Assembly: GCA_002269645.1 (NCBI GenBank) | Contig: NIVC01002339.1 | Span: forward strand, 1-54,334 | Direction of reading: 5' to 3' | Length of the DNA: 54,334 nt | Origin: Macrostomum lignano | Taxonomy: Eukaryota | Shown here: one piece after another, positions 25,201 through 54,334 of the stretch | How the letters are laid out: every line of letters begins with the position of its first letter | Numbering within the stretch: position 1 is the stretch's first letter | Made by a program: the position numbers and the translations under genes | Notes under the pieces: model-generated | What the model saw: the letters and a program-made list of their open reading frames with translations, nothing else | Told to the model about the DNA's origin: nothing | The model's database searches: none

Positions 25201-25335
25201 CAGCCGGCGGCCCAGGCGGCTCCGGCCGGCGATGAGTTGGCGGCATCAGATCTTGCGAAGCCTGAAGAGCCACTGCGCCGCTCTGCCAGGGCCACAAAGG
25301 GCATTCCGCCTCTCCGCTACAGACATGACGTGTGA
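22290..25335 (+). pseudogene. pol: Gypsy pol: protease, RT, RNase H, integrase (disrupted)
   Basis: KLDTGAEVS (PR); LDAKTGFWQI, IVDDMLVWG (RT); VDSSSIGVG, YAQIEKE, TDHKPL (RH); HEGHAG...CSTC, VGCDLLDF, LVSDMGP (IN). Confidence 0.9.
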
Positions 25336-29040: not shown

Positions 29041-30746
29041 ATGGTTTCAAAACTACAGCCTCTGTACGAGATTGTCCGGGACTCCGTGGCCAACACCACC
29101 GCTCACGCTATCGGCCGAGTGGCTCCTGCGAGTCGACCCGTCGCTCTTCGGGTTTTCTGGCTGCTCACTTTTTTATCCTTTCTTGGCCTGCTACTCAACA
29201 CCTGCATCGTCTACATTGGGAAGCTCAACAGTCCGGGCGTCAAGTCCGAGTTCGAAGCCGAAAAGGTTCCGTTCGAGTTTCCCGACGTGTACTTTTGCAA
29301 CAGTCTGCAAACAGCTGGATCCTTCACGTGTCGCTTGAACAAGTCCGAAGCTGACCAGGTGAAAACTCCATTCTACGCTGCAAATGCCTCATTCCAAGAT
29401 GCGCTCAACTCCCTGAACTCATCGGCCCACATTACCGTCGCACTGGACGAGCTTCGGCCAACAAGCTTGATCCAGTCGCTCCCGTACAAAGTTCTCGCTG
29501 ACATCGTCGGTCAGCGGAAGCTGCAGACTTTCTACATGAACTTCGGCATATTCAGTGCAGGCTCTGAGCCAACACTCGACAAGCCGATTGCGGTCGAGAC
29601 ATTGTACCACCCGAATCACCTGAAGTGCTTTAAGCTGGCCTTGACCGACACTGAGTTGCTCAAAATGCAAAACACAAACAGCAGACTCAAGCTTAATTTA
29701 CACTTGGATCCATACTTTCGCGACTTTGACGAAAAAGGTTTGTTCTCACCACCTGATCAGCGCCTCCCGAACATGACTACAATTGTTTCAGGAAAGTCAG
29801 TAAATGTATATCCGTATGACTGGGACCTGGAGAACCCAATCGGATTCGATAAAGGCAGCGGAATGTACCTCTACCTTACTCCCAGAGGTCAGTATCCTTC
29901 GCGACTCACGTCGACTGTGGTCAGCCTTGGTCCTGGAAGAGCCTATGATATCTCGATCGCGATGCGAGATGTTCTCATGAAGCCGTCGGACTTCCCGGCA
30001 AGTGTGTCTCACAGCACGACGAGCCAGTGTTGTTCCTCAACCCGCGCACCGGTTCTGCCGACGCGTTTAGCTACAGCGAGGCCCACTGCTACTACTCGGA
30101 GATCGCCAGGAGCAGACAGCAGATGTACAACTGCAGTCCTTCACCGGACCCGACACCATGGGAGTTCAGACACTTGGCCTTGTGTCTCAACCTCACTGCA
30201 GCGGCATCGATGGACACCATCCACAGAAATATGAATGCGTTTCTGAGAGCTCGAGAAGACGCTGACAGCGCAAACAGCTCGTGGGACAAAGCGTGCTCAG
30301 AGAAGCGACTGTGCAATCAGCGGCTGTACGATGTGACGTCATCGTACGGATTGTGGCCGAACCAGGGCAGCCTGATTCGCCTAGTGAAAAACCTGTTAGG
30401 ATCTCTGCTAGCGTCTGTGGATCCAACGGATTATAGGTCTTTGGAAACTGGTGTCAAGATTATGAAATTTATGGATGCTTCTGACAGGCTTGGTTTCGAG
30501 GAGGGAGTGTCGCGTTATTTTTCGCGAGCCGCAGTGAGCGTCACGCTTCGAGCGGATGCAACAATGAGCTCTCTGACAACATTCAGTCTTGACTACAATC
30601 TGTCCCAGTTTATCGCTGACATCGGCAGCGCTCTCGGATTGTATCTGGGCTGCTCTCTGCTGACTGTGCTGGAGCTGTTTGAGCTGCTGCACGACGTGAT
30701 TCTGCGTGCGAGTTGCTTGAGGCGCGCGGACAATACGCTCGAATGA
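29041..30746 (+). CDS. DEG/ENaC (degenerin/ASIC family) channel subunit, copy 1; one 1-nt deletion at 29996/29997 relative to copy 2
   Basis: NTTAHAIGRV, TM1 VFWLLTFLSFLGLLL, FPDVYFCN, Cys-rich region, TM2 FIADIGSALGLYLGCSLLTVLE. CCCGGC here versus CCCTGGC in copy 2 splits the ORF. Confidence 0.85.
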
Positions 30747-35198: not shown

Positions 35199-36905
35199 AT
35201 GGTTTCACAGCGCCTGCCTCTGTCAGAGATTGTCCGGGACTCCGTGGCCAACACCACCGCTCACGCTATCGGCCGAGTGGCTCCTGCGAGTCGACACGTC
35301 GCTCTTCGGGTTTTCTGGCTGCTCACTTTTTTATCCTTTCTTGGCCTGCTACTCAACACCTGCATCGTCTACATTGGGAAGCTCAACAGTCCGGGCGTCA
35401 AGTCTGAGTTCGAAGCCGAAAAGGTTCCGTTCGAGTTTCCCGACGTGTACTTTTGCAACAGTCTGCAAACAGCTGGATCCTTCACGTGTCGCTTGAACAA
35501 TTCCGAAGCTGACCAGGTGAAAACTCCATTCTACGCTGCAAATGCCTCATTCCAAGATGCGTTCAACTCCCTGAACTCATCGGCCAACATTACCGTCGCA
35601 CTGGACGAGCTTCGGCCAACAAGCTTGATCCAGTCGCTCCCGTACAAAGTTCTCGCTGACATCGTCGGTCAGCGGAAGCTGCAGACTTTCTACATGAACT
35701 TCGGCATATTCAGTGCAGGCTCTGAGCCAACACTCGACAAGCCGATTGCGGTCGAGACCTTGTACCACCCGAATCACCTGAAGTGCTTTAAGCTGGCCTT
35801 GACCGACGCTGAGTTGCTCAAAATGCAAAACACAAACAGCAGACTCAAGCTTAATTTACACTTGGATCCATACTTTCGCGACTTTGACGAAAAAAGTTTG
35901 TTCTCACCACCTGATCAGCGCCTCCCGAACATGACTATAATTGTTTCAGGAAAGTCAGTAAATGTATATCCGTATGACTGGGACCTGGAGAACCCAATCG
36001 GATTCGATAAAGGCAGCGGAATGTACCTCTACCTTACTCCCAGAGGTCAGTATCCTTCGCGACTCACGTCGACTGTGGTCAGCCTTGGTCCTGGAAGAGC
36101 CTATGATATCTCGATCGCGATGCGAGATGTTCTCATGAAGCCGTCGGACTTCCCTGGCAAGTGTGTCTCACAGCACGACGAGCCAGTGTTGTTCCTCAAC
36201 CCGCGCACCGGTTCTGCCGACGCGTTTAGCTACAGCGAGGCCCACTGCTACTACTCGGAGATCGCCAGGAGCAGACAGCAGATGTACAACTGCAGTCCTT
36301 CACCGGACCCGACACCATGGGAGTTCAGACACTTGGCCTTGTGTCTCAACCTCACTGCAGCGGCATCGATGGACACCATCCACAGAAATATGAATGCGTT
36401 TCTGAGAGCTCGAGAAGACGCTGACAGCGCAAACAGCTCGTGGGACAAAGCGTGCTCAGAGAAGCGACTGTGCAATCAGCGGCTGTACGATGTGACGTCA
36501 TCGTACGGATTGTGGCCGAACCAGGGCAGCCTGATTCGCCTAGTGGAAAACCTGTTAGGATCTCTGATAGCGACTGTGGATCCAACGGATTATAGGTCTT
36601 TGGAAACTGGTGTCAAGATTATGAAATTTATGGATGCTTCTGACAGGCTTGGTTTCGAGGAGGGAGTGTCGCGTTATTTTTCGCGAGCCGCAGTGAGCGT
36701 CACGCTTCGAGCGGATGCAACAATGAGCTCTCTGACAACATTCAGTCTTGACTACAATCTGTCCCAGTTTATCGCTGACATCGGCAGCGCTCTTGGATTG
36801 TATCTGGGCTGCTCTCTGCTGACTGTGCTGGAGCTGTTTGAGCTGCTGCATGACGTAATGCTGGGTGCGAGTTGCTGGAAGCGCGCGGAAGAACAACTAA
36901 ACTGA
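35199..36905 (+). CDS. DEG/ENaC channel subunit, copy 2 (intact, intronless, 568 aa)
   Basis: Two TM segments, FPDVYFCN (FPAVTICN-like), Cys-rich ectodomain, TM2 with GCS filter (G-x-S). Confidence 0.92.
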   Translation: MVSQRLPLSEIVRDSVANTTAHAIGRVAPASRHVALRVFWLLTFLSFLGLLLNTCIVYIGKLNSPGVKSEFEAEKVPFEFPDVYFCNSLQTAGSFTCRLNNSEADQVKTPFYAANASFQDAFNSLNSSANITVALDELRPTSLIQSLPYKVLADIVGQRKLQTFYMNFGIFSAGSEPTLDKPIAVETLYHPNHLKCFKLALTDAELLKMQNTNSRLKLNLHLDPYFRDFDEKSLFSPPDQRLPNMTIIVSGKSVNVYPYDWDLENPIGFDKGSGMYLYLTPRGQYPSRLTSTVVSLGPGRAYDISIAMRDVLMKPSDFPGKCVSQHDEPVLFLNPRTGSADAFSYSEAHCYYSEIARSRQQMYNCSPSPDPTPWEFRHLALCLNLTAAASMDTIHRNMNAFLRAREDADSANSSWDKACSEKRLCNQRLYDVTSSYGLWPNQGSLIRLVENLLGSLIATVDPTDYRSLETGVKIMKFMDASDRLGFEEGVSRYFSRAAVSVTLRADATMSSLTTFSLDYNLSQFIADIGSALGLYLGCSLLTVLELFELLHDVMLGASCWKRAEEQLN

Positions 36906-40586: not shown

Positions 40587-42091
40587 AACTAAATACAGCT
40601 TTATAAGTTAGCACAGAAAAGTTCGCCAACAACATTACTTGGAAAAAATTGTCCATTTAAACGACCAACTATTCAAACATTATTATGAATTAATATTATT
40701 CTGATGTTATTCGAATCAAAATGTTACAACTCCTCGATTTTTTAGTACTTGACGCCTTTTTCTGCTAAATTGAACTTTCGTAGGTAAATCTTGTAGTGAA
40801 GCTTTATTACTAATCTCTTTGAACGATTAAGTCAAATAAGCTACTGACCACAGCAACCGGGAAGGCGTGCACCTTTGACGTTATCAATTAATCGAAACCT
40901 GCAGCCCGCATATCCGTTGTGATTCCTAATTATGCACTTGAATTTGTTGAAACCACATAATATTTTGTTGTATTGTCTTATCGATTGTTAAAACCGTCTT
41001 AGTGCTTGGACTATGACTATTAATGTTGTTGTCTGCAATGACAATTTTCTGGATGCAGCACCAAACTTTGTGTGCCCATATACTCGCATTATAGTTTCTG
41101 TCTAAATGAATAACTATAGGTAAGTTGACAAAATTTGTGCCCAACTTCAAATATACTTAACGCACAACTTTATCTTAACTATCCGGTCCATCCCTGGTGT
41201 GTGTTTATGTCCACGTGTATAATGCTATACTTTTGAGTAGCAAATGAAGCAAGCCGGATGTCGTGAAAATAGTTCTTGTACCAGACTAACAACATTTAAA
41301 TTAGAGTTAAATTGATACTGAGAGAGAAGTCGCAGTAAGTGGGCGCAGGGCCCAAACCAGTATATTTATATGACATTAAATAGCAGGGGGTTTGAATTGA
41401 AGATAATAAAGAGAGGGGTGGAGTGCGCGACTAAAAAGAGAGGGGAGAATGGAGAGCCAATCAGAAGGCGACGAGGGAGAGGTAAGAATAACAAGATTGA
41501 GCTAGACAGAAAACAGAGTAAACAGAGACAAGTGAAGGTGAACTAAATAAATGACTAGGAAAGTCGCGACACCGGAGGTGTACTTACATGTTTATCGAGA
41601 CATTTTTGCTTATGAAATCCTCAAGGACTACTTGAGTAGAAGGTAGACTACGTTTTTTGGAAATGTTTAAGAGGCAGGAGTTTTACCAAAAAAAAATACT
41701 TACGGAGAATGAATGGTTTCATTTTTTTTCAGCACAAAAATCTATTGATATTTATAAAGCCTTTCGTTTAGAAAATTAGAATTCTATGGTCATTTTTTGA
41801 ACGAATGTCAGTGTCGGAGTCGCATTCAGCGCTAAGCAGACAGAAGATCCTTTATGAAGCTAAAAATTCAGGTATTATCCAAAGCTTGGGCAGCTTTTTG
41901 AGATGCCTTTCAACCCTGTCCTACCAGTCGAATCGGCTGTTTTGCTTGACTGGCAACTGACAAAGTTCTGTTTGCCTGAAGCAATCTGTGCTCAACAGAC
42001 TGAAACCAGCGCAGCAGTTTTAAGTCACATTGTCGTTTCAGTTCATTGTTTGAAGCATGCATTTTTTACTGAAAACTAAAAATGAGTTGTC

Positions 42092-42450
42092 AGGGGGGCC
42101 GTAGCCCAGCGGTAGCGCAGCTGCTCTGGTGTGCCAGCGACCCAGGCTCGATTCCAAGTGCACTCACATTAATTTGGGGCTGAATTGGAATCTCGGCTTG
42201 GCTCTGCTCGTGCAATTAACGGCCTTGAGAGCCAACCCCCCAAGGCGCAGTGAAGTGTACATGCCTAACGATAAAATAAAGTTAGGGCCGCTGTACACTC
42301 CTGTGTGAGTGTGTGCCTGCGTACGTATCCGCGCGCTTGTGTGCCTGCTCAGGGGAGTCGGCGGAATGGGCAGTAATGCCTCTCGCCGGTTGTGTGCCTA
42401 TGTCGGTTAAAGTGCGCCAGGGTGCACACAACCCCGGCTGCCTCTAAAAA
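42092..42450 (+). mobile_element. tRNA-derived SINE with poly-A tail and 14-bp TSD
   Basis: A box GTAGCCCAGCGGTAG, B box GGCTCGATTCC, A-tail at 42446. TSD AAAAATGAGTTGTC at 42078-42091 and 42451-42464. Confidence 0.85.
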
Positions 42451-43025
42451 AAAAATGAGTTGTCTGTATGTGGGTAGGTATGCGATTGATTTTAGAATAG
42501 GCTCAACCAATTTTCTTCAAATTTGCACCATTCGATCAGAAATTTTCCTGGGACGGTACATACATCTTGGCTAAGAAATTGCTTAATGCTAAAGGGATTA
42601 AATATTCGAAAAACATGCTTTTTGCAAAGGTCAAGCAGCTCTTTCGACCTGAAATGCATTGTAAGAATGCTAGAGAAAAAACTGACTGACTGAATTCCGA
42701 TTGTGATAAAGATTGCATCACAACAAGTTGAAAACAGTGCCGAAGAAATGCACACACGACTTGATTTAAATTGCGTAACCATATTGCTAACTTGAATTAA
42801 GACTGATACTGGCTGACTGAGAAATTGATTATGTCGTAACTTTTTACTCTAACTGACTTGCTTAGTTAAGGGCAGCAGTTAATTAAGGGCAGCAGTTCAT
42901 GTTCTCCAATTGAAAAGAGATAGCCTAGATGCGAACAGACTGCACTGCTAATGTAGCGACCTGGGTTCGAATCTTAGTAGCGGAAAATAATTTTTTTATT
43001 AAAACACCTTAAAAACACAAAATGC

Positions 43026-43230
43026 TAAACATAAAAGAAGCGCAATATCAAGCATAAAAGAGCCACCATTTCAAACATTAAAGAGCCACCATGTCAAACA
43101 TAAAAGAGCCACCATGTCAAACATAAAAGAGCTACCATGTCAAATTTTAAAGAGCCACCATGTCAAACATAAAAGAGCAACCATGTCAAACATATACGTG
43201 ACTCCATGTCAAACATTAAATATAAAAGAG
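43026..43230. repeat. 23-bp tandem repeat (AAAGAGCCACCATGTCAAACATA) abutting the Polinton end
   Basis: About 8 degenerate copies visible. Confidence 0.85.
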
Positions 43231-43233
43231 ACA

Positions 43234-43504
43234 AGTAGTATATAAAAAGACGCTTCTAGACCCAGAGCACTTTTTTAATGACCGTTTTAAGGGTCTAGAG
43301 GGGGGACACGGGGGGTAAATAAAAAAACACATCTAAACACCATTAATACATCTAATCACCCATAATCACCCCTAACAATAAAAATCACTTCCAAACACTT
43401 CCAAACACTCCCCAACACCCCCCTCGCGTCCCCCCTCTTAAGACCTTACAAACGGCCATTAAAATAAGGTCTGATCTAGAAGCGTCTTTTTCTATACTAC
43501 TACT
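43234..43504. repeat. ~85-bp imperfect inverted repeat with AGTAGT...ACTACT ends around a C/A-rich spacer
   Basis: 43234-43316 AGTAGTATATAAAAAGACGCTTCTAGA...GAGGGGGGACACGGGGG versus the reverse complement of 43418-43504. Confidence 0.9.
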
Positions 43505-43558
43505 CTATAACCCCTTGCCCGCGCCGCAGGCGCGAAGGGTCTTTTTCTGTTACTAAAA

Positions 43559-43873
43559 ATGACCCGAGTTTACACTTTTTCTGTTAGTGATACTTTTGAG
43601 ACTGTTGCTAAAAATGCAGAGATAATAAAACAACATATTTTGAATGGAATAATTGATGAAGTTTATTTAAAATATGACGACAAGCACGACCTAAAACTTT
43701 ATCCATTAGAGCTAGATGAGATGTATGATTTAGAACAAGAGGGTGAGTTAATATTTCAACTTGGAGATTATTTAAATTCGGATGATTGGGAGGTTAGATC
43801 AACAGATTCCGAATCAACAAATAGTTCATATGAAACCAGCGATTCAGAGAATGAAAGTGAAATTTTTATGTGA
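43559..43873 (+). CDS. Polinton hypothetical acidic protein (104 aa)
   Basis: ORF with TAAAAATG start; D/E/S-rich C-terminus. No family recognised. Confidence 0.6.
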   Translation: MTRVYTFSVSDTFETVAKNAEIIKQHILNGIIDEVYLKYDDKHDLKLYPLELDEMYDLEQEGELIFQLGDYLNSDDWEVRSTDSESTNSSYETSDSENESEIFM

Positions 43874-43889
43874 AAAAAATATTTAAAAA

Positions 43890-44114
43890 ATGAACTATTA
43901 TTCTATAACAGAAACGACATTTATTGTGAAAAATATATATAAAAAAATGAAGGTAAATTACTCCTACATCGGAAATGTGCCGATTAATGAACTTAATGAA
44001 AATTTAAGTTTGATAACAGTTGAACAAATGTCAATAATAATATTAGTAACAATAATAGTAATAATATTGTTTTTGTTTGTAATAAAAAATTTACTACCAT
44101 GTTGTCTTAAGTAA
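43890..44114 (+). CDS. Polinton small membrane protein (74 aa)
   Basis: TAAAAAATG start; C-terminal hydrophobic helix IIILVTIIVIILFLFVI. Confidence 0.55.
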   Translation: MNYYSITETTFIVKNIYKKMKVNYSYIGNVPINELNENLSLITVEQMSIIILVTIIVIILFLFVIKNLLPCCLK

Positions 44115-44124
44115 CTGTTTGAAC

Positions 44125-45730
44125 TTAGTTCGCAGACATTATCTGGTTCTCATAAAAAGAACCCAATATTTCTTCACCGTCCTTATCAGCAATTATATAG
44201 GTTGTAGGATTGGTATTTAAAACTTTACTGATAGTAAATTTCTCACTTATCTTCCAATATCCTTTTCTTCCTTTTTCAAACTTATCTTTCCATTTATAGA
44301 TATAAACAGAATCACCAACCTTAAAAGATTTCTTTTTATTTTTTTCAAATTTTCCAAAAGTAACTTTAACGTTTTCAGGATTGTTATAAGCTTGTTGAGG
44401 AGTCATCTTTATCGCCGAATGATATGAATTGTTATAATCTTTCACTACGTCTGGTAATATTTTTACCCACTTTTGGTTACCATTAAGACTAAACTGAAAC
44501 CATAATTTCTTACCTAAAGTTCTATTAAATCTTTCTATTAATGCGTTTTTACTCTCTCCATAAATAGAATAAATTTTATTAATATACTCCCCATTCGCGT
44601 CCTTTTTCCTTTCTTGTCCTTTTTCAAAATGATATAATTTATACATATGAGGATTGTAAAATTCTTTTCCTTCGTCAACACACAAACGTTCGCTTTTTTC
44701 TCCAAGACTTCTAAAAGCAGCAGCAACATCCTCTCCTTTTTTGGATTTCAAAGGAACAGCCCACGCGTATCGAGTAAAACCATCTAATATGGTTAAGATA
44801 TATTTATATCCTCTTTCGTTCGGCATCGACATTAAATCAGCATACCAAATTTCATTCTTTTTGAAGTTCATGATTTTTCTATAAAATTTAGGTTTTCGAT
44901 ATTCTTTATGAAGAATCTTTGCCTCATCAGAACTTAACCCACCGCCACTTAACAACAAACACTCAACACAATTATTTCCATGTTGATTATAATTAATTCC
45001 TAAACCAAATTTAACTTTAGATTGTAGAATTTTTTTAACCATCCACCTAGTTAATCTTTGCCCTACCGATAATCCCTGCAAGTTATCTAATCCTTGAATC
45101 ATTTTTTGATCGGCTTCATGTTTTAATCTTAATGCTTCCTCGGGCGGGTTCTTGTCAGCATCTCTATATGCTAAGTCGTGATAGTATGCTAACCAATCAA
45201 TCCCATTTATTGGAATTGAATCAGATTTTGGGGTGTCATCAGGATTTAATCTCAAATCTAAGCGAGTCCCGGCAGTTTACCCTCAATCTTTCGAAAGAGG
45301 CTGGAGCACACCTTAAGCGGTTAAATTACCGCCCATCTCCGTCTGCTCTCTGAACCTTCTCCTTATATTTAAAATACTTAGGAGCTTGGCTGCGCATTGC
45401 CACCGTGTCTTCAAGCTTGTTACCATCGAACCATAGGTTCGCGTGCAAAGCACGATTGGGAAGAGGAGTTACCTCTGTTCCTTCAAAAGATTTCTCAATT
45501 GAAGTGGTACTTGAAGCTGTATGATGGGTTTCACGCAATTTGGAGATGTCGCCACAAATAGTGACTAGCAAGGACATTGCCTTCCTCACTCAGGCCACGG
45601 GTTAACCTGTGAAGTTCATTGATGGTAGGTGTAGTTCCCCTGTATATTTACCAGTAGTAAAGATTGGTGGTAAGCTTGTTAATCCTTTTTGAACATCTAA
45701 CAATCCTCCTTCAAACACTATTTGGTTCAT
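44125..45730 (-). CDS. Polinton PLA2(X)-rve integrase fusion, 424 aa after removing the group I intron; exon 1 45730-45604, exon 2 45272-44125
   Basis: Spliced: ELHLPSMNFTG-S-GTRLDLRLN...IDWLAYYHDLAY...ADQKM (parvovirus-type PLA2 Ca loop and HD motif), then WYADLM...ILDGFTRYAW...CVDEGKEF...IERFNRTL (D,D,E) and FKVGDSV...GSFYENQI. Confidence 0.9.
45273..45603 (-). ncRNA. Group I self-splicing intron, subgroup IC1-like, 331 nt, no internal ORF recognised
   Basis: P1 CAGGUU/GGCCUG with U.G at the splice site; P10 CCCG/CGGG; P3 CAUCUCC/GGAGAUG; P element AAUUGCGUGAAA; Q element AAUGCGCAGCCAAG; P5abc with A-rich bulge and GAAA loop; receptor CCUAAG...UAAGG; P7 GAGCA/UGCUC with bulged A; P8; terminal G. 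Removal restores the frame. Confidence 0.93.
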
Positions 45731-46280
45731 TTTTAATAGCCTTAAAAATACATGAAAGCACCAATTGTTTTGCAAACTCTTCAATGGTTGGTTGTTTAAC
45801 TTTTTTATAGTTATTATCTACGCTAGTTAAGTATCTTTTATTTGTCCAATGTTCAGACTTTTTCATCTGATCTTCATCTTTGTAACTAAACGAAGAAGCG
45901 GGAATGAAATGATCAATATCTAAATTTCCAGTATAATCTTTTGAAACATAATATTTTCTTGTGAAATTTAACCAATCAAAAAAGAATTCTTTTGTGCAAT
46001 CAAGATATGAGATATAGTCCTTGTCATTAAAATTTTTCAACGCCCAATTTATTTTATTTCTAATTAAAACAATATGTTTGTAATTATCATCATTGTGATA
46101 CTTGTTTTTTCTATATTCATTAAACTTATCTTTATTGTTTTTCATCCAAATAGTAGATGAGGTATTATGACAAGATCGACAATCATTTCTAAATTTTTTT
46201 GAATCATTTCTCCAAAAATAAAATTCTTTCGTCATTGGTTTTTCTTGTTTACACTTAATACAAATCTTTTTAGGTTCCAT
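45711..46280 (-). CDS. Free-standing HNH-type endonuclease with N-terminal zinc finger (189 aa)
   Basis: CIKC...CRSC Zn finger; DIDHFIP...EHWTN...DNNYKK (HNH/N pattern); TAAAATG start; 3' end overlaps the PLA2 start. Confidence 0.75.
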   Translation of the reverse strand: MEPKKICIKCKQEKPMTKEFYFWRNDSKKFRNDCRSCHNTSSTIWMKNNKDKFNEYRKNKYHNDDNYKHIVLIRNKINWALKNFNDKDYISYLDCTKEFFFDWLNFTRKYYVSKDYTGNLDIDHFIPASSFSYKDEDQMKKSEHWTNKRYLTSVDNNYKKVKQPTIEEFAKQLVLSCIFKAIKNEPNSV

Positions 46281-46308
46281 TTTATAAAAAAATAAATTTA
46301 ACAATTAA

Positions 46309-46991
46309 TTAAACTCCAGTATGTCCAGCAGCTTTCGCAGCAGCTAAAACAAGTTTTCTAGGAGTTTTAAATCCATCACCAACAGCTGGTTTGTTATTTA
46401 TAGAATTAACAATCCATTTATACAAGCTGGTATTTTTAACAGCTCCTCCTAAATCATCATAAAAAATTCTAGCACTTACTAAATCATTCTAGTATAAAAA
46501 TCAGGGTTAAACTTAACCCTAGGGTTAGTAATAATTCTATATGCTCCGCCCAATTCTCTATATAGTTCATTTCGATCTTTATCAACGTTACCAATTCGGT
46601 AATTATTATTACCTAAATCTGTCACAGCAATACTAGCTGGTACTCTTGGAAATTGTTTAACTTCTTCACCCCTTTCTGCAGCCCTAATCTCTGCACGTCT
46701 AATCTCTGCAACTCTCAATTGAGCTTGATCAACATCATAAGCAGGCGGCTCATCCAAAATTTCATCCTCTTTTGGCTCAGTATTTTTAGCAATTTTTTCC
46801 AGAAGATCTTTATCTGTTTTTTCTAGTTCACTAATTTTCCCAGTAATAGGATTAACAAAAGGAGCAGCAAATCTTTCACCAGCTAATTGTATTCCTAACT
46901 TTCTTTTTTGTAAATTTCTAACAAAATCAGAATATCTTTGCTTCTCTTTATAAATCGCTAACTCTCCATCAACGTCCATAAATTGACTCAT
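46309..46991 (-). CDS. Conserved-type Polinton protein (one frameshift near 46486)
   Basis: N-terminal ERFAAPFVNPIT. A shifted frame continues ...VGDGFKTPRKLVLAAAKAAGHTGV to a stop at 46309, resembling the LLxA...AGN motif of Maverick core-like proteins (weak recognition). Confidence 0.55.
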
Positions 46992-47025
46992 TTTTTAACA
47001 TAAAAAACTTTTTTAACTTAAAAAA

Positions 47026-48497
47026 ATGGCTGAAACAAAAACTATGTGGAGTGATAAATTTCATTTCAAAAAGCACCGACAGTATATTAATGAGGTCAGA
47101 GCAAGAGATTTAAATTATACCCTACCAACAAGTGATAATTCAAATAACTTTACTACTGGAACGGTAACTTTTGACATCGGCGCAACCAACACTATATTGG
47201 ATATGAAAAATGCATTTTTCCGTGTTAGATGGTTGTATACTAGAAATGATGGAACTGCTCTTGCAGCCGGAGATATCGCAGATCGATCCGGAATAATAAT
47301 AGAAAATGATTGGTTTTATAAATGTTTTTCCCAAGCTCAACTAACTGTTAATGGTGCTGAGGTTGAGACATCATCAAACCCCGCAGAGATTAATGGAGTT
47401 TTGAAACATTTAAATTATACTTATTTATCAAAACAAGTTGGTGATAATGTTGGGTGGATGCCGGATAAAGGTAACGGGCAAGCAGTAGTTTTCCTAATGT
47501 ACAAAACGCAGCCGGTGCAGATACTGCAGCGCTAATTGTTTACCTTAATACAAACATAGTTCCAGTTGTAACCACTATGACTAATACAAAAGATATTAAT
47601 ACTGGTTTTATAGATCGTCAGAATAAATTCCCAGTCGCGGTTTTAACCACAGCAACAGCATATGAGCAGGACTTTTCAATCTTTCCACTATTTGGGTTTT
47701 TCTCACCAAATCGGGTATGGAAAGGATTAAAATTTGGGATACAGTTGCAAATATCTGGTGGATATCAGCCTAGGATACTTTATGGAACCTCAATTTCAAC
47801 CGATATAGCAGTTCGTATAGATTCAATTCAATTAGTCGTACCAACTATTGAGGTAACAGCCCCACTTTTAAAACACATCGATAATCAGTTAACGCATGAT
47901 CAGGAAATATTTTATTTGAATCGTCGACATTTTATGCGAACCATTAATAATAACCAGGATTCATTCCAGTGGCAAATACTGACATCAAAACGTCGGGTGA
48001 GATATATTTTTGTTTGGTTTAAGATAACAAATAGAAGGAGTAAAAGAGCAAATGGGGATTTATATTGGCTTCAATCCGGTGCCATAGCAGAACAAGCAGC
48101 CACCGCAACAGACAATGCGGCTGCAGCTATTAACGAGTTTAATGTTCAGAATATCCGCCTGCAGGTTGATGATCAATATTATCCGGTTAAAGACCCCCTA
48201 AATTTAAATATAGCAAATAATAATGTTAATGATTTTATAAAATATTATCAAGATTATGCTAAAAATGAAGCGTATGCCGTCCCTCAGTACACACCCACAG
48301 AGTTTCTAAACATTCATCCAGTGGTTGTTTATGATCTAACGGCACAGAAAGAAAACGTAGCCAATATTGGACTTAATTATATGTTAGAGATTAATAAAAC
48401 CGGTAATCAGGCACTTGACGCCCACGTATTGTTTCTAGAGGAATATATGTCAATTGCTAAAGCTGATGGCACGATTGTTCGGGACGCACCATTGTAA
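47026..48497 (+). CDS. Major capsid protein (double jelly-roll), split by one frameshift at ~47490
   Basis: FSQAQLTVNGAEVE, VRIDSIQLVVP, RYIFVWF, NIRLQVDDQYYP, VVYDLT. A shift in the T-run GTTTTCCT joins ORFs 47026-47535 and 47577-48497. Confidence 0.88.
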
Positions 48498-48581
48498 AAT
48501 GAGTGCAGTGCAAAGCACGTCGCACCACTTTAGTGTCGCAGGTCTCCGACCGTCGCGCCTATTTAAATTATTTCTTTAAAA

Positions 48582-49376
48582 ATGGTAAAGGCAAAACACA
48601 ATAAAATATTTCCAAATGATCCTTTTCTTTGTTTAGTAATCGGAGGATCAGGTAAAGGAAAAACACACTTTGTTTACGATTTATTAACAACAGATGGAAT
48701 GTTAGACTATAATAATTTAATAATTTATACTAATAAACCTAGAATAAAATATTATGAATTTCTTAAACATGGATTAAAAAACAAATTAAAAAAAGATGTC
48801 TTGTTTAGAATGTTAAGAGCATATGAGCAATATGAGGATGATGACGAACCGCGATTTAATCTAGCAGACATTGAGGATTTATGTAAAACAATGGCACAAC
48901 AGCCAGAAAACATCACCGATCGCCCCGAAGGGTCGCGGACTTCGTCCGATCGCGCCCCAACTGTTAGAGTATCAACCCGATTAGCCTATGATCAAATTCC
49001 AAAACATGATAAAACACTAATTATTTTTGATGATTGTATTAATGACGGTGATCAAGAATTGCAAAAGGAAATTTTTGTTAGTGGTAGAGGAGATGGAATT
49101 GGAGCTTTTTATCTTACTCAATCCTTTAGAGAATTAGAATCGATTATAAAAAAGAATGCTAGCTGTTGTGTAATGTTTGATTTAGATAACTATGATCTAC
49201 AAAATATTCACGCTAGATTTAATCCCGGATTGGATGCAAAACCATTTAAAAGTATGTGTAAAAAAATTTGGGATGATAGCCAATACAAACATATTTATAT
49301 CAATCCGAGGTTAGAAAGGAAACATAGAATTTTAACAAATTTGATAAAAGAAGATAATGAGGAAGAAGAGACATAG
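48582..49376 (+). CDS. A32/FtsK-like DNA packaging ATPase
   Basis: Walker A GGSGKGKT, Walker B LIIFDD, SGR (Arg finger), YLTQ, IKKNA. Confidence 0.93.
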   Translation: MVKAKHNKIFPNDPFLCLVIGGSGKGKTHFVYDLLTTDGMLDYNNLIIYTNKPRIKYYEFLKHGLKNKLKKDVLFRMLRAYEQYEDDDEPRFNLADIEDLCKTMAQQPENITDRPEGSRTSSDRAPTVRVSTRLAYDQIPKHDKTLIIFDDCINDGDQELQKEIFVSGRGDGIGAFYLTQSFRELESIIKKNASCCVMFDLDNYDLQNIHARFNPGLDAKPFKSMCKKIWDDSQYKHIYINPRLERKHRILTNLIKEDNEEEET

Positions 49377-49396
49377 CACAATTTCCCACTATAAAA

Positions 49397-50182
49397 ATGA
49401 CTACAAATTTAAATACTATAAAACAATTGGTAGATCGAACTAATTCAAAATTTAGTACAACATTACAGTTTATAATGACAACCAGCGAGCAACGGATTCA
49501 ATTGCGCGATCCATTACAACTTGATCAAAGCCTAAGTTATCAAATAGGTTTAATTCTATTTTCGGTTTTCAACATGCCTCAATTAATTAATGCAACAAAT
49601 AATCAATTTAGATATTCTAAAGATTCCGGAGCCAATTGGACAACATTTAGCATTAACCCAGGAGCGTATAGCTATACTGATTTGAATGCTTATATAGAAG
49701 GAGAATTAACAACTAATGGTGATTGGGTAACAGGAGCAATTGTTATAGGTGTTGATTTACCGTCTGGCAGATTCACACTATCACTAGGATCCGGATATCA
49801 GGTTGATTTCACAATTGCAAATTCACTCAGAACCATACTTGGATTTAATTCCCGAATAGTTACCACATCAAGCACCGGAGATACAGTGGGAAATATTGAG
49901 GGTGGAGTTAATACAATTAATATAACAACCGACATATCAAACGGTGGTTATATAACAGATAATAACGGAGTTTTGGTTCAACGTGGAATTATTTATTCAA
50001 TCCCATTTCTTGCTGTTCCAATTGGAGAGAAAATGATTGTTGCACCCCAAACCCCAATATATTATCCTTTAAATCAATATAGCGTTCAATCAATTTATAT
50101 TAGGATTGTAGATGAAAGCGATAGATTAATAAGTTTTGGTGGGCAATCAATAACAATAATTTTACGTATAAAACAGGTTTGA
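49397..50182 (+). CDS. Minor capsid protein (penton, single jelly-roll)
   Basis: NNQFRY, INPGAYSYTDLN, LRTILGF, IYYPL...IYIRIVDESDRLISFGGQSITIILRIK typical of Polinton pentons. Confidence 0.88.
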   Translation: MTTNLNTIKQLVDRTNSKFSTTLQFIMTTSEQRIQLRDPLQLDQSLSYQIGLILFSVFNMPQLINATNNQFRYSKDSGANWTTFSINPGAYSYTDLNAYIEGELTTNGDWVTGAIVIGVDLPSGRFTLSLGSGYQVDFTIANSLRTILGFNSRIVTTSSTGDTVGNIEGGVNTINITTDISNGGYITDNNGVLVQRGIIYSIPFLAVPIGEKMIVAPQTPIYYPLNQYSVQSIYIRIVDESDRLISFGGQSITIILRIKQV

Positions 50183-50226
50183 TCGAACCTTTGGTTCACG
50201 GACTTTGTCCGTTTCCTATAGTAAAA

Positions 50227-50430
50227 ATGGGTAATCGAACAACATGTTCGCGTGCAAAGCACGATAATAATTTAATAAAAAAACAATCAGAAAAAGTTAA
50301 AAAAGCTGAAGATAATTACGAACTAGAACTAGCAAAATTAAGGCAGTTACAAGCTGATAAAATAAGAAAGGAATTGTTAAAACCCACACCTACGAAACTA
50401 ACTAAAACCAAGAGTTTTTCAGGAACATAA
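50227..50430 (+). CDS. Small basic hypothetical protein (67 aa)
   Basis: TAAAAATG start at 50227; coiled-coil-like; contains an in-frame double-hairpin element. Confidence 0.5.
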   Translation: MGNRTTCSRAKHDNNLIKKQSEKVKKAEDNYELELAKLRQLQADKIRKELLKPTPTKLTKTKSFSGT

Positions 50431-50431
50431 A

Positions 50432-50872
50432 ATGACCATGACGTGGGATGATTTTAAACAAAGATATGGAACGGACACAACAAGCAATATCGAATTAACA
50501 AATTGGGCGAGGCAGTTAAAAATAAAACCATTCAGATGTGTTATGCGGGATGAGATAAAAGACTTACCACAATATGGATGTTTCATTGTTAATATTGAAA
50601 CAACAAAAGAAAATGGTGTTCATTGGTCAGCAGTTTATTCCAAACCTAAACTTGTTTATTTTTTTGATTCATATGCGCTTCCTCCGTTACAGGAAATAAA
50701 AGACAAATTTAATCATACTAAAAATCGTTTATGTGGAGATCATCACGAACAATTTCAAACCTTTGATAAAAGTTATTGCGGGCAAGCGGCGTTGTATTTT
50801 TTATATCGACTTTCGAATGAAGCTCGTGTAAACCCCGAAGTATTTAAGATGATTTTAGACTCTATAAAATAG
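50432..50872 (+). CDS. Adenain-like cysteine protease (capsid maturation)
   Basis: IVNI...GVHW, YFFDSY, QFQ...YCG: His-Asp-Gln-Cys arrangement. Confidence 0.92.
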   Translation: MTMTWDDFKQRYGTDTTSNIELTNWARQLKIKPFRCVMRDEIKDLPQYGCFIVNIETTKENGVHWSAVYSKPKLVYFFDSYALPPLQEIKDKFNHTKNRLCGDHHEQFQTFDKSYCGQAALYFLYRLSNEARVNPEVFKMILDSIK

Positions 50873-50882
50873 ACAGTAAAAA

Positions 50883-52922
50883 ATGTTATTTTCTGGAACA
50901 CCCTCATGGAACGGAACATCAAGTACTGGTGGTGGTACTTCTGGTGGAATAAGTGTTACATTCGGAGATAACCGATATATTAATGAAGATGAAGGTTATA
51001 AAAAAAGTGAAGTTGATACTAAACTAAATTTAAAAAGAAATGTTGCAGATTCCTATACCAAAACTCAAATAGATAATTCCCTAAATTTAAAACGGAACGT
51101 AGCCGATTCATATACAAAAACAGAGGTTGACAATGGGTTAAATTTAAAAAGAGATATAACTGATTCTTATTCTCGAACTCAAATAGATGATTCATTAAAT
51201 TTAAAACGCAATACGGCCGATTCTTATACCAAAACCGAAGTTGATAATTCCCTAAATTTAAAACGGAATGTTGCTGATTCCTATACCAAAACTGAAGTTG
51301 ATAATTCCCTAAATTTAAAAAGAGATATAACTGATTCCTATACCAAAACCGAAGTTGATAATTCCCTAAATTTAAAAAGAGATATAACTGATTCTTATAG
51401 CAAAACTGAAGTTGATAATTCCTTAAATTTAAAAAGAGATATAACTGATTCCTATACCAAAACGGAGGTTGATAATTTAGTTGGGGTGGAGCCCCAAAAC
51501 AAGATCGATTCCAAACGGTTGAAACTGGTCACATACCTACCATGGCAGATTGGAGTGGAAATGGTTTTGCAATAACCGCAAGCACTGCATTTAATACAAC
51601 TGATTTTGCAAGTTGGAAAGCGTTTGATGGAAATGATTCAACAGATTGGGCAACAAATAATACTCAAACCGATTATTGGATTCAAGTCCAATGCCCTTCC
51701 GCAATAATGTGTTATAAAATTGATTTACGTGTAGGCCATCACCTTCAACCGAGCACCAGCATCATGGCGATTTGAGGGAAGTAATGACAATACAAGTTGG
51801 GACGTATTAATACCTGCGGATAGTTCTGTAGCAATAAATAACTCAACTCAAACAATTAATGTCACACAAAATTTTGATAAAACATATTCATATTTCAGAT
51901 TGTTCTGTCTTACATCAACCTCGGGTTCAACCAACCCGGGTCTGTCAACCTTCCAGATTTATAGACAGACGTTTACAATTCTTGATTTAAATTTGGGAGT
52001 GGTTAATCAATCAATTGATATGGGAGGTAATACAATTACTAATATCTCTACTATAAACAATAACAGTTCTGTTGTTACTAAAGGTTATGTTGATACGCGA
52101 GTAACACAAACGGCGGATGGCCGAATGTCTTTTAACGATAAAATAAAATTGGATGGAATACCTGCAATCGATGCCGCTTTGTACGAGCCTGTAATTTGCA
52201 ATTGGACTGGATATCAAAACCCAACCACAGCCGGTGATATTTTTCCAACTGGAAGTTTTGTTGGTAGCGCTACTTATATTGATTATCAAAATGGAGCTAG
52301 AATTACTGATGAAGCAAGTGGTCAGTCTGGAGCGTTGCAATTTAATTTCACCCATTTTCGTAATATCTCCGCCTCCTTCTATTTCCGAGTTGCTAATGCT
52401 ACAGGAAGTGGTGCTGATGCGGTTTGGTTTTATGCATATTGTCACGAACGTCCAACAAGTGAATTTGGATCCGGGTTAACAACCCGCGCCGGCTTGATTG
52501 TGTTTGCGAGTGAATGGCATGATAGAGTTGGGTTGTTTGGAGCAATATAAAATCAGACGGTGCAACAGCTCGTAATGATGTTCTTAATGACGCAGATCAA
52601 ACTATAACCTATGCTAATATTGATAACGGCGATTGGCATCTTTTTGAAATTAATATTTTAAATCAAAGAGTTTGGTATCAAATAAGCACATACAATGTAT
52701 CAGCTAATACATATACGCTAATTGGCAAAACTTTTTTACATATGATAGTGGAACTTGGGGAGATTTAGATAAAACGGGAACTCTTATGGGTTTTGGTGCT
52801 CGAACTGGAGGAGCAGATGCCGCACATTTTATTCGTGGGCAGCCGTTTGTGGTAGCACATCAGCAGGATATGATTTTGCTGCGACCGCATATTTGGAACG
52901 GCCACAAACCGAAATACCTTAA
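50883..52922 (+). CDS. Fiber/receptor-binding-like protein: 18-aa repeat shaft, F5/8C-like domain, fiber motif, L-type lectin-like head; about five frameshifts
   Basis: About nine KR(N/D)xxDSYTKTEVDNSLNL repeats; WKAFDG...WIQVQCP...WRFEGSND...YSYFRL; IDMGGNTITNI...VTKGYVD; GADAVWF...WHLFEI...GFGARTGGADAAH. Confidence 0.75.
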
Positions 52923-53141
52923 ATATTTCTATATAAAATGGCTTTTAGTAGAACTCCATCGATGCGGCAAAATAATGTTATATTCCTATTCCTAAACAAG
53001 AATCAAATATAAAAACATTCAAATCTCATACCAAATTTTTATTTAGTACTGTAAATGTTCAGGATAAAAGAAGCTTCAAGAATTAATTAAGTTATTAAAA
53101 AATCATATTATACTTCAAGAGTTTTGGAAAATAGGATTTAA

Positions 53142-53909
53142 ATGGGAGAAAAAAGAAAGAATAACTCCAATACAATACCTATTAAGCTCGGGACAAATCC
53201 CCAAAGAGCGTGGGGAATTCATTGGTGCTATTAAAAATAGACGAGAATGTCGGTATCTGAAGCAGATAAATGGGAACGCGACCGGTTCAACCAACGTAAA
53301 AGGTCAGATGTTAGTAATGTTGATCGAATAAATATGATTATGATTTATATGCTAAAAAAGTAAGAAGAGTTTCAAACCATATAAGAAATATGGATTTTTT
53401 CAATATTGGATTTGGAAGCTTATCAATGTTATGTGTAATCGTTTTAGGTATTTTACAATCCATTCCAACTCTTAATTTATCTCAATTATTTTTAGGTATT
53501 TCAATTGGCTCAATATCAGGTTTTGAAATGATCAGAAACTTATCAATACTTTTAGCAATTAAATTATATCTTAAAAAACGAAAGCAAAAATATAAATCTT
53601 TAAGAGATGTTGCCAAGCAATATAAAAATCAATTATATTTATATGTGCAAAAAATATTGGATGACGGAGAGATAACGATTCATGAATTATCAACCGCGGT
53701 TGAATTATATGAAAAATATTTAAAAGATAGAAATAGAATTTTTAGATGTTGAAACTTTTACCGATATGGAATTAAAAGGTTTGGACTCGATAACCCAAAG
53801 CTCCACCTATAGAAACATTAGGCATTTACGAACCTGAAACTATTGCTACTGGGGCACAAAGCCGCAGCGTCAGGAGTGGCGGTAGAACTTCAGGTTGTTT
53901 AGTTTTCTA
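53142..53909 (+). pseudogene. Polinton membrane-associated protein, frameshifted (core ORF 53390-53752)
   Basis: Two hydrophobic segments then K-rich KYKSLRDVAKQ...KILDDGEITIHEL...YEKY, a pattern common in Maverick accessory ORFs. Flanking frames are broken. Confidence 0.5.
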
Positions 53910-54334
53910 ATGGCATATGTTATATATTCTTCCCAAAGTGTAACTCTCTTCTGATTCTAGGTTTAAATTTTTTATCAATACATAAAAATTCCAATGACTT
54001 TTTCAATAACATTTCGTTAGGTATGTTACCTATCCTTATAAACTTTGTATTCTCGAATAAGAAAATTGAAATAATATCCAACTAAAATTAAAATCCTTTC
54101 AGAGTCTTTCGAACTTAATCCCTTTCCTTTATTTAAATGGAAAAAGTTATTATATAAATAAACATTATTTCCGGGGAATTAAAATTGGATCAGAAATGTC
54201 TCTTGTAAATTTCTTAAAATTGTGTTTTAAAATAGTAATATGAGTTTTCAATCTTTTTTGTTTGTTTTTTCAAATTGATATATTTTAGAAACAATGAATA
54301 ACACATATGATATATATCTCCGTTTGCTGTTTGC

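Follow-up and report, generated by a model that had tools for sequence, protein, structure and literature searches.

Group I introns have been reported in Polinton-like viruses (PLVs) of protists. RF00028 introns were described for Rhodomonas lacustris (cluster C3), Paulinella micropora and Desmodesmus armatus; like the intron analyzed here, they are about 300-380 nt long and interrupt a protein-coding gene of a Polinton-type virus that is endogenous to a eukaryotic nucleus (PMC12220804). However, these cases were described as restricted to a few protist groups and involve a short gene upstream of MCP, whereas the intron described here interrupts a PLA2-integrase gene in an animal host and occurs together with intron-borne and free-standing nucleases, empty alleles and site avoidance. 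Eco47II is not mentioned in the main text of PMC12220804, and its tables S11-S12 list intron-bearing PLVs that could include animal elements. The initial annotation of our locus was aware of no such intron in Polintons; for Polinton-like viruses as such, the protist reports take this novelty away.

Group I introns with homing endonucleases are known in Bodo saltans virus (PMC5871332), and interference competition was described for gp210 of phage PhiPA3 (PMC11620839). As in our case, an essential viral gene contains the nuclease target, which the intron masks; introns occur both as nuclease-bearing "parents" and as ORF-less "offspring"; and competition between related viruses was proposed or shown (PMC5871332, PMC11620839). 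The nucleases in those lytic viruses are homing enzymes of the HNH or GIY-YIG type, whereas the present system has a protein resembling type IIP restriction enzymes, has lost a five-base site throughout the element and is found as copies in animal chromosomes. Collaborative homing in phages, in which a free-standing nuclease lies beside an ORF-less intron (PMC3984707, PMC11296320), has the same arrangement as 19 of our loci, and the intron-internal version of our nuclease corresponds to the end state predicted by that model. Our system differs in nuclease family and host, and its nuclease slot also holds an endonuclease VII/HNH-like ORF, including in intronless copies.

Eco47II homologs have been assigned GGNCC (PMC10305163). 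Our nuclease resembles the Eco47II/Sau96I systems and EcoO109I in family match, fold and PD-(D/E)xK residues, and exactly that site is depleted; unlike those restriction-modification systems, it has a 160-aa core and lies in or beside an intron, and no companion C5 methyltransferase motif was found near the gene.

According to a 2013 review, the nuclear group I introns known were all located in rRNA genes (PMC3679873). Introns of the rDNA IC1 class (Tetrahymena type) share P2.1, P5abc with an A-rich bulge, the L5b GAAA/P6a receptor pair and P9.0 with our intron, which differs in its protein-gene location, lack of P9.1/P9.2, variant P7 and mostly terminal A. Animal mitochondrial group I introns occur in sponges, placozoans and cnidarians (PMC9240083), including ND5-717, which lacks the terminal G (PMC6545197). 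These introns also reside in animal protein genes and provide a precedent for terminal-G loss, but are neither nuclear nor viral. We found no report of a group I intron in the nuclear DNA of animals, or in one of their Mavericks, in open-access PMC or bioRxiv.

A group I intron in a Maverick PLA2-integrase gene

The window, i.e., the whole stretch of DNA that was analyzed, comprises 54,334 nt of Macrostomum lignano (contig NIVC01002339.1). Its features are listed in Table 1.

Table 1. Features of the window discussed in the text
Feature	Positions	Strand	Evidence
Host DEG/ENaC channel gene, 6 kb from element end	35199..36905	+	Pfam ASC, E 1e-31
Maverick left end, begins AGTAGT, internal inverted repeat; host DNA to left	43234..43501	.	
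PLA2-integrase exon 2: remaining parvovirus-type PLA2 domain and rve integrase; one base short	44125..45272	-	
Group I intron, ORF-less form (family A), 332 nt	45273..45604	-	RF00028; copies and empty sites
Helices of family-A intron: P1, P2, P2.1, P3, P4, P5abc and two extra hairpins, P6/P6a/b, P7 variant, P8, P9.0, P9			
P9.0, P9 (GAAA loop), terminal base	45273..45302	-	
P7 with bulged A and G-C guanosine-binding pair	45303..45350	-	
P1: last five bases of exon 1 and two intron bases with internal guide sequence	45591..45609	-	
PLA2-integrase exon 1, 42 codons, ends at first Gly of Ca-binding loop	45605..45730	-	
Variable nuclease slot upstream of exon 1; here endonuclease VII/HNH-like ORF	45711..46280	-	
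Probable major capsid protein gene, two frames in window copy	47026..48497	+	
A32-type packaging ATPase	48582..49376	+	Pfam Pox_A32, 28.9 bits

The minus-strand intron matched Rfam RF00028 over model positions 1-253 of 253 with 62.1 bits (gathering score 50, E 2.6e-15), in agreement with the full-length group I intron proposed in the initial annotation. A scan of the whole window with fast filters at the gathering threshold returned no match, which was a filter miss. The minimum free energy had a z-score of -3.25, and 1 of 100 shuffles folded equally well. Double-sided changes were detected in 17 of 98 pairs, including three in P7, compared with no more than 4 in slid controls, in a covariation alignment that took in 19 of the 68 intron loci, had 98.2% of its cells paired and left out the inner P8 pairs because families A and B (see below) are unalignable there. 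The three P7 pairs differ between the two families, each by a double-sided change. This pattern indicates that the intron structure is under selection.

P3 (45548-45542/45340-45334), P4, P5a with its A-rich bulge, the L5b GAAA loop (45494-45491) and P6/P6a lie where they had been placed initially, and the variant P7 (45350-45344/45308-45303) was recovered as claimed. P8 was also placed correctly, but starts one base later, 45334 being part of P3. The U.G pair at the 5' splice site, after 45605, is kept in all 19 aligned variants and in metagenome contig L076. The proposed IC1 class agrees with P2.1, P5abc with its A-rich bulge, and the L5b GNRA loop with its P6a receptor, but not with the P9.1/P9.2 extensions, a feature of the Tetrahymena intron: there is room for P9.0 and P9 only between P7 and the 3' end.

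The 5' boundary, originally set at 45603 (331 nt), was moved to 45604 (332 nt) on the basis of copies, empty sites and homologs. A Gly/Pro codon junction was found in 38 of 40 close copies, 27/27 bounded family-B copies, a metagenome copy and four intronless sister genes, and the calcium loop reads G-P-G-T in all 11 database homologs that span it. The alternative of a Ser codon with a splice site at the second U was rejected for the family on the Gly/Pro junction of copies and empty sites, although it could conceivably apply to the window copy alone. It had looked right because the window copy (and one other among the 40) is one base short in the first bases of exon 2, and the exact frame restoration that had been claimed fails in this copy. 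The four-base-pair P10 of the initial annotation likewise required the shifted register; judged directly from the sequences and unscored, P10 becomes weak once the family junction is used.

At the 3' end, 45273 was upheld as the last intron base, supported by the P9.0 pairing 45302-45301/45275-45274, which was absent from the initial list of helices. Its identity as G could not be generalized: G is found in the window copy, in 6 of 40 close copies, in 27/27 bounded family-B copies and in L076, and A in 34 of the 40 close copies. A terminal A is known from a Coxiella intron; our literature search for terminal-A precedents recovered ND5-717 alone and did not find the Coxiella case.

Exon 2 gave 32.8 bits with Pfam rve and, when the piece was searched by itself, E 0.0026 with Phospholip_A2_4, and an in-frame ATG at 45102 lies upstream of the integrase domain. 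Both exons are under purifying selection in intron-bearing copies (pN/pS 0.08-0.21 in nine pairs, eight of them terminal-A). Exon 2 is open over at least 382 codons in 20 of 37 bounded close copies, in a survey in which regex bounds were missing for 4 of 68 intron loci. The ORF in the slot matched PHROG endonuclease VII (E 2.4e-6) and had no Pfam match.

Location in a Polinton/Maverick PLA2 gene, as initially annotated, was confirmed by the fused rve integrase, the A32 ATPase and AGT-repeat termini at unrelated host sites. At the left end (43234), GC content drops from about 45% to 33%, and all seven left ends examined start with AGTAGT and have different flanks. The right end of the window element is located past the end of the contig. 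Nine sister contigs, outside the window, encode protein-primed DNA polymerase B (PF03175) at a distance of about 11 kb from the intron. Candidate capsid, penton and protease ORFs had no match in the libraries searched; we take 47026..48497 to encode the major capsid protein, and the labels double jelly-roll capsid, penton and protease are our assumption. The intron core motif has 146 matches in the genome, Wnt genes lie on the same contigs as intron copies (C952, at a distance of 23 kb; C67, C506 and C393), and the stretch is present in 20 public runs from 7 studies under one organism label, none of the runs listed being recorded as RNA. Homolog searches with two host proteins returned no named relative, and searches for mir-124 and mir-2 were uninformative as to the host phylum. 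Mavericks with the intron are integrated many times in animal chromosomes, and the animal nuclear location initially suggested reflects neither a contaminant nor a chimeric join.

Sister introns, empty sites and an Eco47II-family nuclease

Sister introns at the same site (family B) encode an Eco47II-family nuclease in the P2.1 loop. The same intron, nuclease and site, in the same composite form, were found in the environmental Polinton-like contig L076, which shows that the intron is shared among Polintons but identifies no donor for the acquisition in another host that the initial annotation had suggested. Families A and B are 79-82% identical in the intron and 61-63% identical in exon 2, where silent sites are saturated; the high intron identity could reflect structural constraint, not transfer. 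A third intron type was present at seven loci, with Gly-Ala, not Gly-Pro, as the sole in-frame reading of its junction.

The initial annotation had proposed a search for intronless sisters. A narrow first pattern found none, and a broader one, blind to Gly-Ala or shifted junctions, found 22 empty sites, of which 19 belong to one lineage. Intronless family-A sites were rare (3 found). Intron types, empty sites and slot genes were scattered in an exon-2 tree that excluded family B, L072, L224 and duplicate rows and in which most nodes are weak; such scatter is compatible with homing-driven conversion and also fits recombination. Among viral contigs, the intron motif had no match, and single-sequence searches of viral and metagenome contigs with the nuclease and exon 2 returned none or one irrelevant locus. 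Alignment-based searches of these contigs succeeded where single-sequence queries had not.

The nuclease query had a marginal match to Pfam RE_Eco47II (PF09553; 26.3 bits, cut-off 25.9), and this family was matched by 66 of 70 aligned homologs. The predicted catalytic PD-(D/E)xK residues D65, E76 and K78 are nearly invariant, and pN/pS is about 0.3. The closest structure was EcoO109I (PDB 1wtd; TM 0.70, Z 9.2, rmsd 3.9, 156 of 160 aligned; next Z 6.6), an enzyme with the site RGGNCCY, at 13-14% identity. A C5 methyltransferase motif was sought with a regex in stretches near the nuclease gene: none was found in the element part of the window, L001-L075 or L218-L226, and 14 of 139 distant loci had one.

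Eleven of 40 close copies have a free-standing nuclease in the slot that immediately precedes exon 1. The intron was present in all 19 free-standing-nuclease loci with a downstream PLA2 gene (11 and 8 in two surveys), and contigs with intronless sites had no nuclease match (0/20). The nuclease is found inside or beside the intron and is absent from empty alleles, which represent few independent lineages. This association is not statistically independent evidence, because only three empty family-A sites are available, 19 of the 22 empty sites come from one lineage and the family-B nuclease is intron-internal. The endonuclease VII/HNH-like ORF was also considered as a partner of the intron and rejected, because all three intronless family-A loci contain it, and many loci with the intron have something else in its place or a reduced version of it.

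Several states were observed in one population: an empty site, a free-standing nuclease with an ORF-less intron, a nuclease inside the intron, and a rival intron type.

Avoidance of GGNCC

The empty junction spells GGNCC, a Gly-Pro codon pair. This pentamer is absent from the 11.1-kb element part of the window (10.6 expected) and from a family-B stretch (6.1 expected); in each, it is the most depleted of 16 palindromic pentamers, and in each lineage 1 of 2000 codon shuffles matched the absence. The host part of the window (43 kb) contains 101 sites (108 expected). Across the 68 loci, 206 kb of element DNA contain 2 sites, compared with 18 in 27 kb outside, and two unrelated Polinton contigs are undepleted (14 vs 13.9 and 7 vs 6.1 expected). 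In the three intronless family-A loci, the empty junction is the sole GGNCC. An intronless family-B sister is GGNCC-free over 6.4 kb (5.1 expected), so avoidance is a lineage trait, untied to present nuclease carriage. Absence of the pentamer over two silent-saturated lineages is what a short-site cutter predicts, and family and depletion together suggest GGNCC as the probable specificity of the nuclease.

Nuclease association, GGNCC avoidance, intronless sisters and the terminal-A majority had been overlooked in the initial annotation.

A proposed intron-nuclease module and its alternatives

We favor, with moderate confidence, the explanation that the intron is spliced and covers the one remaining target of a nuclease that has no methylase and serves homing or competition. 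The 332-nt intron would excise itself from the PLA2-integrase mRNA, perhaps aided by proteins, in a two-step guanosine-primed reaction that joins Gly to Pro in the PLA2 calcium loop. It would form one half of a selfish module in the Maverick population. The other half would be a small type II restriction-enzyme-like PD-(D/E)xK protein of the Eco47II family, seated in the P2.1 loop (family B and the metagenome relative) or upstream of exon 1 (many family-A copies), which most likely cuts GGNCC or a longer site containing it. The elements, in which no methylase was seen, would instead have shed GGNCC sites. Every Gly codon followed by a Pro codon contains GGNCC, which makes the conserved Gly-Pro of the PLA2 loop the most difficult site to eliminate. 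The intron would split this site in DNA, and splicing would rebuild the Gly-Pro sequence in RNA. Intron-bearing elements would thus be immune, whereas intronless elements would be cut and either lose out or be repaired from an intron-bearing template (homing). ORF-less introns may persist because they protect from the nuclease of co-resident or co-infecting copies.

Several observations sit uneasily with this explanation. Terminal A (34/40) would be expected to slow the second step where the binding site is G-C, the Gly-Ala junction of the third intron type suggests that Gly-Pro may be dispensable, and a five-base cutter would shred host DNA too (101 sites/43 kb), which is odd for a nuclear homing enzyme. 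In addition, the selection seen at PLA2 silent sites could in part be older than the gain of the intron, or result from recombination with genes lacking it. Assembled contigs on L002 (from three presumed-RNA runs and one unlabelled run) covered intron and exons with no intron-spanning joint; being short and from a multi-copy repeat, they are evidence neither for nor against splicing. We put forward more tentatively the full proposal that more than 100 working ribozyme copies reside in an animal protein gene, that the intron is the immunity part of a methylase-free GGNCC restriction system, that all stages coexist and that most members of one family splice with terminal A.

The best-surviving alternative, although unlikely, is an ordinary mobile intron with a true homing endonuclease that recognizes a long junction site and spreads by homing (collaborative when free-standing) with no wider role, GGNCC loss being due to relaxed specificity or another enzyme. 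The anatomy is classic (peripheral-loop ORF, catalytic-motif insertion, ORF-less derivatives and empty alleles), collaborative homing has been described in phages (PMC3984707), and a long site would spare the host genome; however, the bare pentamer is absent across two silent-saturated lineages, and the nearest families are type IIP restriction enzymes.

It is less likely still that the nuclease serves mainly as a weapon during the lytic cycle, directed at host chromatin or at a giant virus (helper or competitor), with avoidance and intron protecting self and homing incidental. Chlorovirus restriction enzymes are believed to degrade the chromatin of the host and did not cause viral exclusion (PMC7019647), giant-virus and other viral contigs contain distant homologs as free-standing genes, and of 16 scanned metagenome loci, 15 lacked an intron. 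Yet the gene is dispensable, swaps with the endonuclease VII/HNH-like ORF in one slot and, in family B and L076, is intron-internal like selfish homing genes. The masking step is common to this possibility and to our favored explanation.

We consider it very improbable that the family-A intron is a splicing-dead relic, in which terminal A blocks ligation, PLA2 is lost and integrase is made from the ATG at 45102. The terminal-A majority and this in-frame ATG ahead of the integrase domain are what such a relic would show, but terminal-A copies occur in the most divergent lineages, P7, P9.0 and P1 are intact and both PLA2 exons are under purifying selection; moreover, the exons of hexacoral ND5-717, which has no terminal G, are perfectly ligated in vivo (PMC6545197). 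Finally, contamination or a chimeric join with non-animal DNA, suggested by the many copies near contig ends, is largely refuted and its probability negligible, given sharp AGTAGT ends with different flanks in 7/7 copies, Wnt genes on the same contigs and presence in 20 public runs of 7 studies.

Nuclear group I introns have been described from rRNA genes of microbial eukaryotes alone (PMC3679873), and those of animals from non-bilaterian mitochondria alone (PMC9240083). If splicing is true, the intron described here would be a natural group I ribozyme in an animal protein-coding transcript and would bear on the rarity of such introns in nuclear mRNA genes. If our favored explanation is true, a type II restriction-enzyme family has been recruited as an intron passenger, with the intron replacing the methylase, and the proposed transition between collaborative homing and a composite mobile intron may be traced in one genome. 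The terminal-A majority offers a ready natural test of 3' splice-site chemistry. In addition, site avoidance suggests that these Mavericks multiply and compete in the form of free DNA, a matter long debated for Mavericks of animals.

The intron and its boundaries

The initial annotation had described the insert in the PLA2 coding region as a group I intron, and our analysis confirmed this. RF00028 aligned over 253/253 model positions (62.1 bits, cut-off 50 bits; E 2.6e-15), and this was the sole group I match to Rfam within 42000-54334; a fast Rfam scan over the entire window did not detect the intron. Folding of the minus strand beat 99/100 shuffles (z -3.25). From the window copy, 98 base pairs were assigned by hand in P1, P2, P2.1, P3, P4, P5abc, two extra hairpins, P6, P6a, P7, P8, P9.0 and P9, and were counted on 19 variants picked from 68 loci. 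Of these cells (98 pairs x 19 variants), 98.2% were paired, and double-sided changes occurred in 17/98 pairs, three of them in P7. Slid partners gave at most 4, which is the fairer test because the structure came from one row and both intron families (A, the ORF-less type of the window; B, ORF-bearing) are related. Group I membership is supported by model and structure, and there is virtually no doubt that the insert is a genuine intron; membership in IC1 is unproven.

The genome assembly (764 Mb, 5269 contigs) contained at least 40 close copies of 86-100% identity (40 scored among 198 candidates), and in 38/40 of these exon 2 begins with Pro-Gly codons, in frame with exon 1. A search for intronless sister elements, proposed in the initial annotation, found its pattern 22 times in the same genome, spread over 20 contigs (0 in the control). 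Four such genes were retrieved (82-94% identity to the intron-bearing families), and these, as well as 11/11 loop-spanning database homologs, had an uninterrupted x-x-G-P-G-T. The intron is therefore placed at the Gly/Pro junction (see table); its 5' end, supported by the 38 copies and the empty (intronless) sites, lies one base from that first proposed. The Ser junction suggested earlier was an artefact of the window copy, which, like one other (2/40), lacks a single base among the first few of exon 2. Given that the probable capsid gene of this copy also spans two frames, mutation and assembly error are both possible. The terminal base, set by P9.0 and empty sites, was A in 34/40 close copies, the most divergent included, and G in 6/40, so that the terminal G originally noted holds for a minority of the family. 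There is a precedent for terminal A in hexacoral ND5-717, whose exons are still ligated in vivo (PMC6545197).

A double hairpin was absent from about one quarter of close copies. Small GC-rich hairpin modules come and go in intron loops, including P2.1, P5 and P6 (loci L058, L055, L064 and others), and similar modules occur immediately upstream of exon 1. In appearance they resemble a very small palindromic mobile element.

Features of the window
Feature	Position	Strand	Remark
Group I intron	45604-45273	-	332 nt; separates the Gly and Pro codons
Final Gly codon of exon 1	45607-45605	-	
RF00028 match	45614-45282	-	
Double hairpin in intron	45427-45453		30 nt
Left-end internal inverted repeat	43234-43501		~270 bases; AGTAGT at one edge, ACTACT at the other
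DEG/ENaC channel genes, tandem pair	29041-30746 and 35199-36905		long ORFs, apparently intron-poor; one in two frames
Gypsy-like retrotransposon pieces (RT, RNase H, integrase)	22733-25335		host part

A Polinton in an animal nuclear genome

The intron-bearing gene is a PLA2-integrase fusion in an element that encodes an A32 ATPase, and in nine sister contigs a protein-primed polymerase lies ~11 kb away from the intron. At its left end, the element begins with AGTAGT (position 43234), and the flanking DNA differed in 7/7 copies. Its inverted repeat was common to 6/7 copies, the remaining one diverging after the same first bases. Wnt genes were present on intron-bearing contigs C952 (23 kb apart), C67, C506 and C393, and the window has DEG/ENaC genes at a distance of 6 kb from the element end. 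The stretch was also present in twenty public runs from seven studies with one organism label. The element ends and the shared Wnt contigs bear out the earlier proposal of a Polinton-borne intron integrated in an animal nuclear genome; the intron-bearing elements are almost certainly chromosomal and their host an animal. A 17-base core motif of the intron had 146 matches in the genome (control, 0); independent insertions are fewer, because in the assembly host genes often have two to four copies, near-identical and on different contigs, as was seen with the Wnt matches.

Novelty in Polintons, tentatively raised in the initial annotation, stands only in part, since group I introns have been reported in protist PLVs (PMC12220804). 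In the main texts of the open-access literature, we found no report of a group I intron from animal nuclear DNA or of an Eco47II-type intron nuclease. According to a 2013 review, group I introns of nuclei are confined to rRNA genes (PMC3679873); in a 2022 paper, those of animals are listed for non-bilaterian mitochondria only (PMC9240083); and the passages on PLA2 genes in the Adintovirus study describe them without introns of this kind (PMC8502044).

Intron types and the Eco47II-family nuclease

An Rfam search of the genome revealed family B (28 scored matches, 72.7-91 bits), which occupies the same junction in a PLA2-integrase only ~60% identical in protein. These introns are 836-895 nt long, end in G in 27/27 bounded copies and carry an ORF in the P2.1 loop. 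The ORF matched Pfam RE_Eco47II (26.3 bits, cut-off 25.9), as did 66/70 aligned homologs, and D65, E76 and K78 were nearly invariant. The predicted structure (pLDDT 96) was nearest to restriction enzyme EcoO109I (TM 0.70; Z 9.2, rmsd 3.9, 156 aligned; runner-up Z 6.6).

A free-standing paralogue (65% identity) was located immediately upstream of exon 1 in 11/40 close copies; the other 29/40, window included, had an endonuclease VII/HNH-like ORF or its remnant there. Nine additional nuclease loci were retrieved, with a PLA2 gene downstream in 8/9 and an intron in 8/8 of these, seven of a third type. At locus L224 (contig C1063) and on C1064, a nuclease homolog (57% identical) is followed by a RING-finger-like ORF and the PLA2 gene is absent; this is probably another endogenous virus. 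The third type (L218-L223, L225) uses the same 5' site, always behind a free-standing nuclease. It shares P2, P2.1, P5abc and P8 with A and B, differs in P1 and the P4/P6/P7 core, and scores 38.8-42.9 bits with RF00028, under the cut-off. Its junction allows no Pro-Gly-Thr reading. In frame it can be read solely as Ala-Gly-Leu-Thr and seems to encode Gly-Ala; this is one base away from where P9.0 and P10, judged by eye, would place the site.

No nuclease match was found on the 20 contigs with empty sites, an association weak by itself because empty alleles represent few independent lineages. Intron types, empty sites and upstream genes were scattered in an exon-2 tree (weak node support). A and B introns are 79-82% identical, and their exon DNA 61-63% with saturated silent sites. 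Scatter and intron identity fit movement between lineages but are also compatible with recombination and structural constraint.

Outside the genome, the identical junction is occupied in metagenome contig L076 by an intron (RF00028, 80.6 bits) together with the nuclease (54% identity). An intron core of this kind is also read through in three database protein clusters. In nuclease homologs P0016, P0017, P0166-P0168 and P0023 from Logan, ENA and JGI (58%, 54%, 43% identity), the C-terminal tail is the translation of a group I core; the composite intron therefore occurs in at least three other lineages, one known as DNA (L076) and the rest from protein sequences.

GGNCC avoidance and a possible role of the intron

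GGNCC is the site assigned to Eco47II homologs (PMC10305163). Every Gly-Pro codon pair spells GGNCC; therefore, the empty junction is itself a GGNCC site, split by the intron. The 11.1-kb element part of the window had 0 GGNCC (10.6 expected) and a 6.4-kb family B stretch 0 (6.1 expected), versus 101 (108 expected) in the host part. Among 16 palindromic pentamers, GGNCC showed the strongest depletion in each of the two element stretches, and zero was reached by 1/2000 codon shuffles in each lineage. When 68 non-independent loci were pooled, 2 GGNCC occurred in 206 kb of element DNA versus 18 in 27 kb outside. Depletion was not seen in two unrelated Polinton contigs. In three intronless family A loci, the sole GGNCC was the junction. 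The nuclease is probably GGNCC-directed. Distant free-standing homologs were frequent in giant-virus and other viral contigs (L077-L215). When the viral loci were pooled, GGNCC was the most depleted pentamer (154 vs 256), and it was lower without a nearby methylase motif (262 vs 474) than with one (30 vs 37.5).

By established group I chemistry (PMC3679873), the ribozyme in the precursor transcript, which carries a stop directly after exon 1, would use the G-C pair of P7 to hold a free guanosine, cut at the P1 U.G pair and then ligate at the base following P9.0. Among intron-bearing copies, pN/pS was 0.08-0.21 in both PLA2 exons and exon 2 was kept open in 20/37 bounded copies, suggesting that the spliced product is needed. 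Splicing in vivo is quite likely; contigs of runs presumed to be RNA had no spliced junction and were uninformative about it.

Alternatively, the nuclease may be a chlorovirus-like weapon that damages host DNA. Such damage is expected of a five-base cutter, and chlorovirus enzymes are thought to degrade host DNA, viral exclusion having been found not to be caused by them (PMC7019647). This damage counts against our preferred explanation, site hiding by the intron, as do the intronless family B sister, which likewise lacks GGNCC, and the third type's apparent Gly-Ala junction. Scanning the element part of the window and loci L001-L075 and L218-L226 revealed no C5-methylase motif, and the system does not qualify as restriction-modification in the strict sense. 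Functionally it would resemble a mobile group I intron accompanied by a competing nuclease; a role in competition was proposed for group I introns with homing nucleases in giant viruses (PMC5871332), and intron-nuclease interference was demonstrated in phage (PMC11620839). On balance, we lean toward the complete site-hiding scheme: the nuclease would most likely cut GGNCC, the elements would escape by having no such site, with the intron hiding the conserved Gly-Pro one and being removed by splicing, and empty alleles would be cut and then lost or converted.
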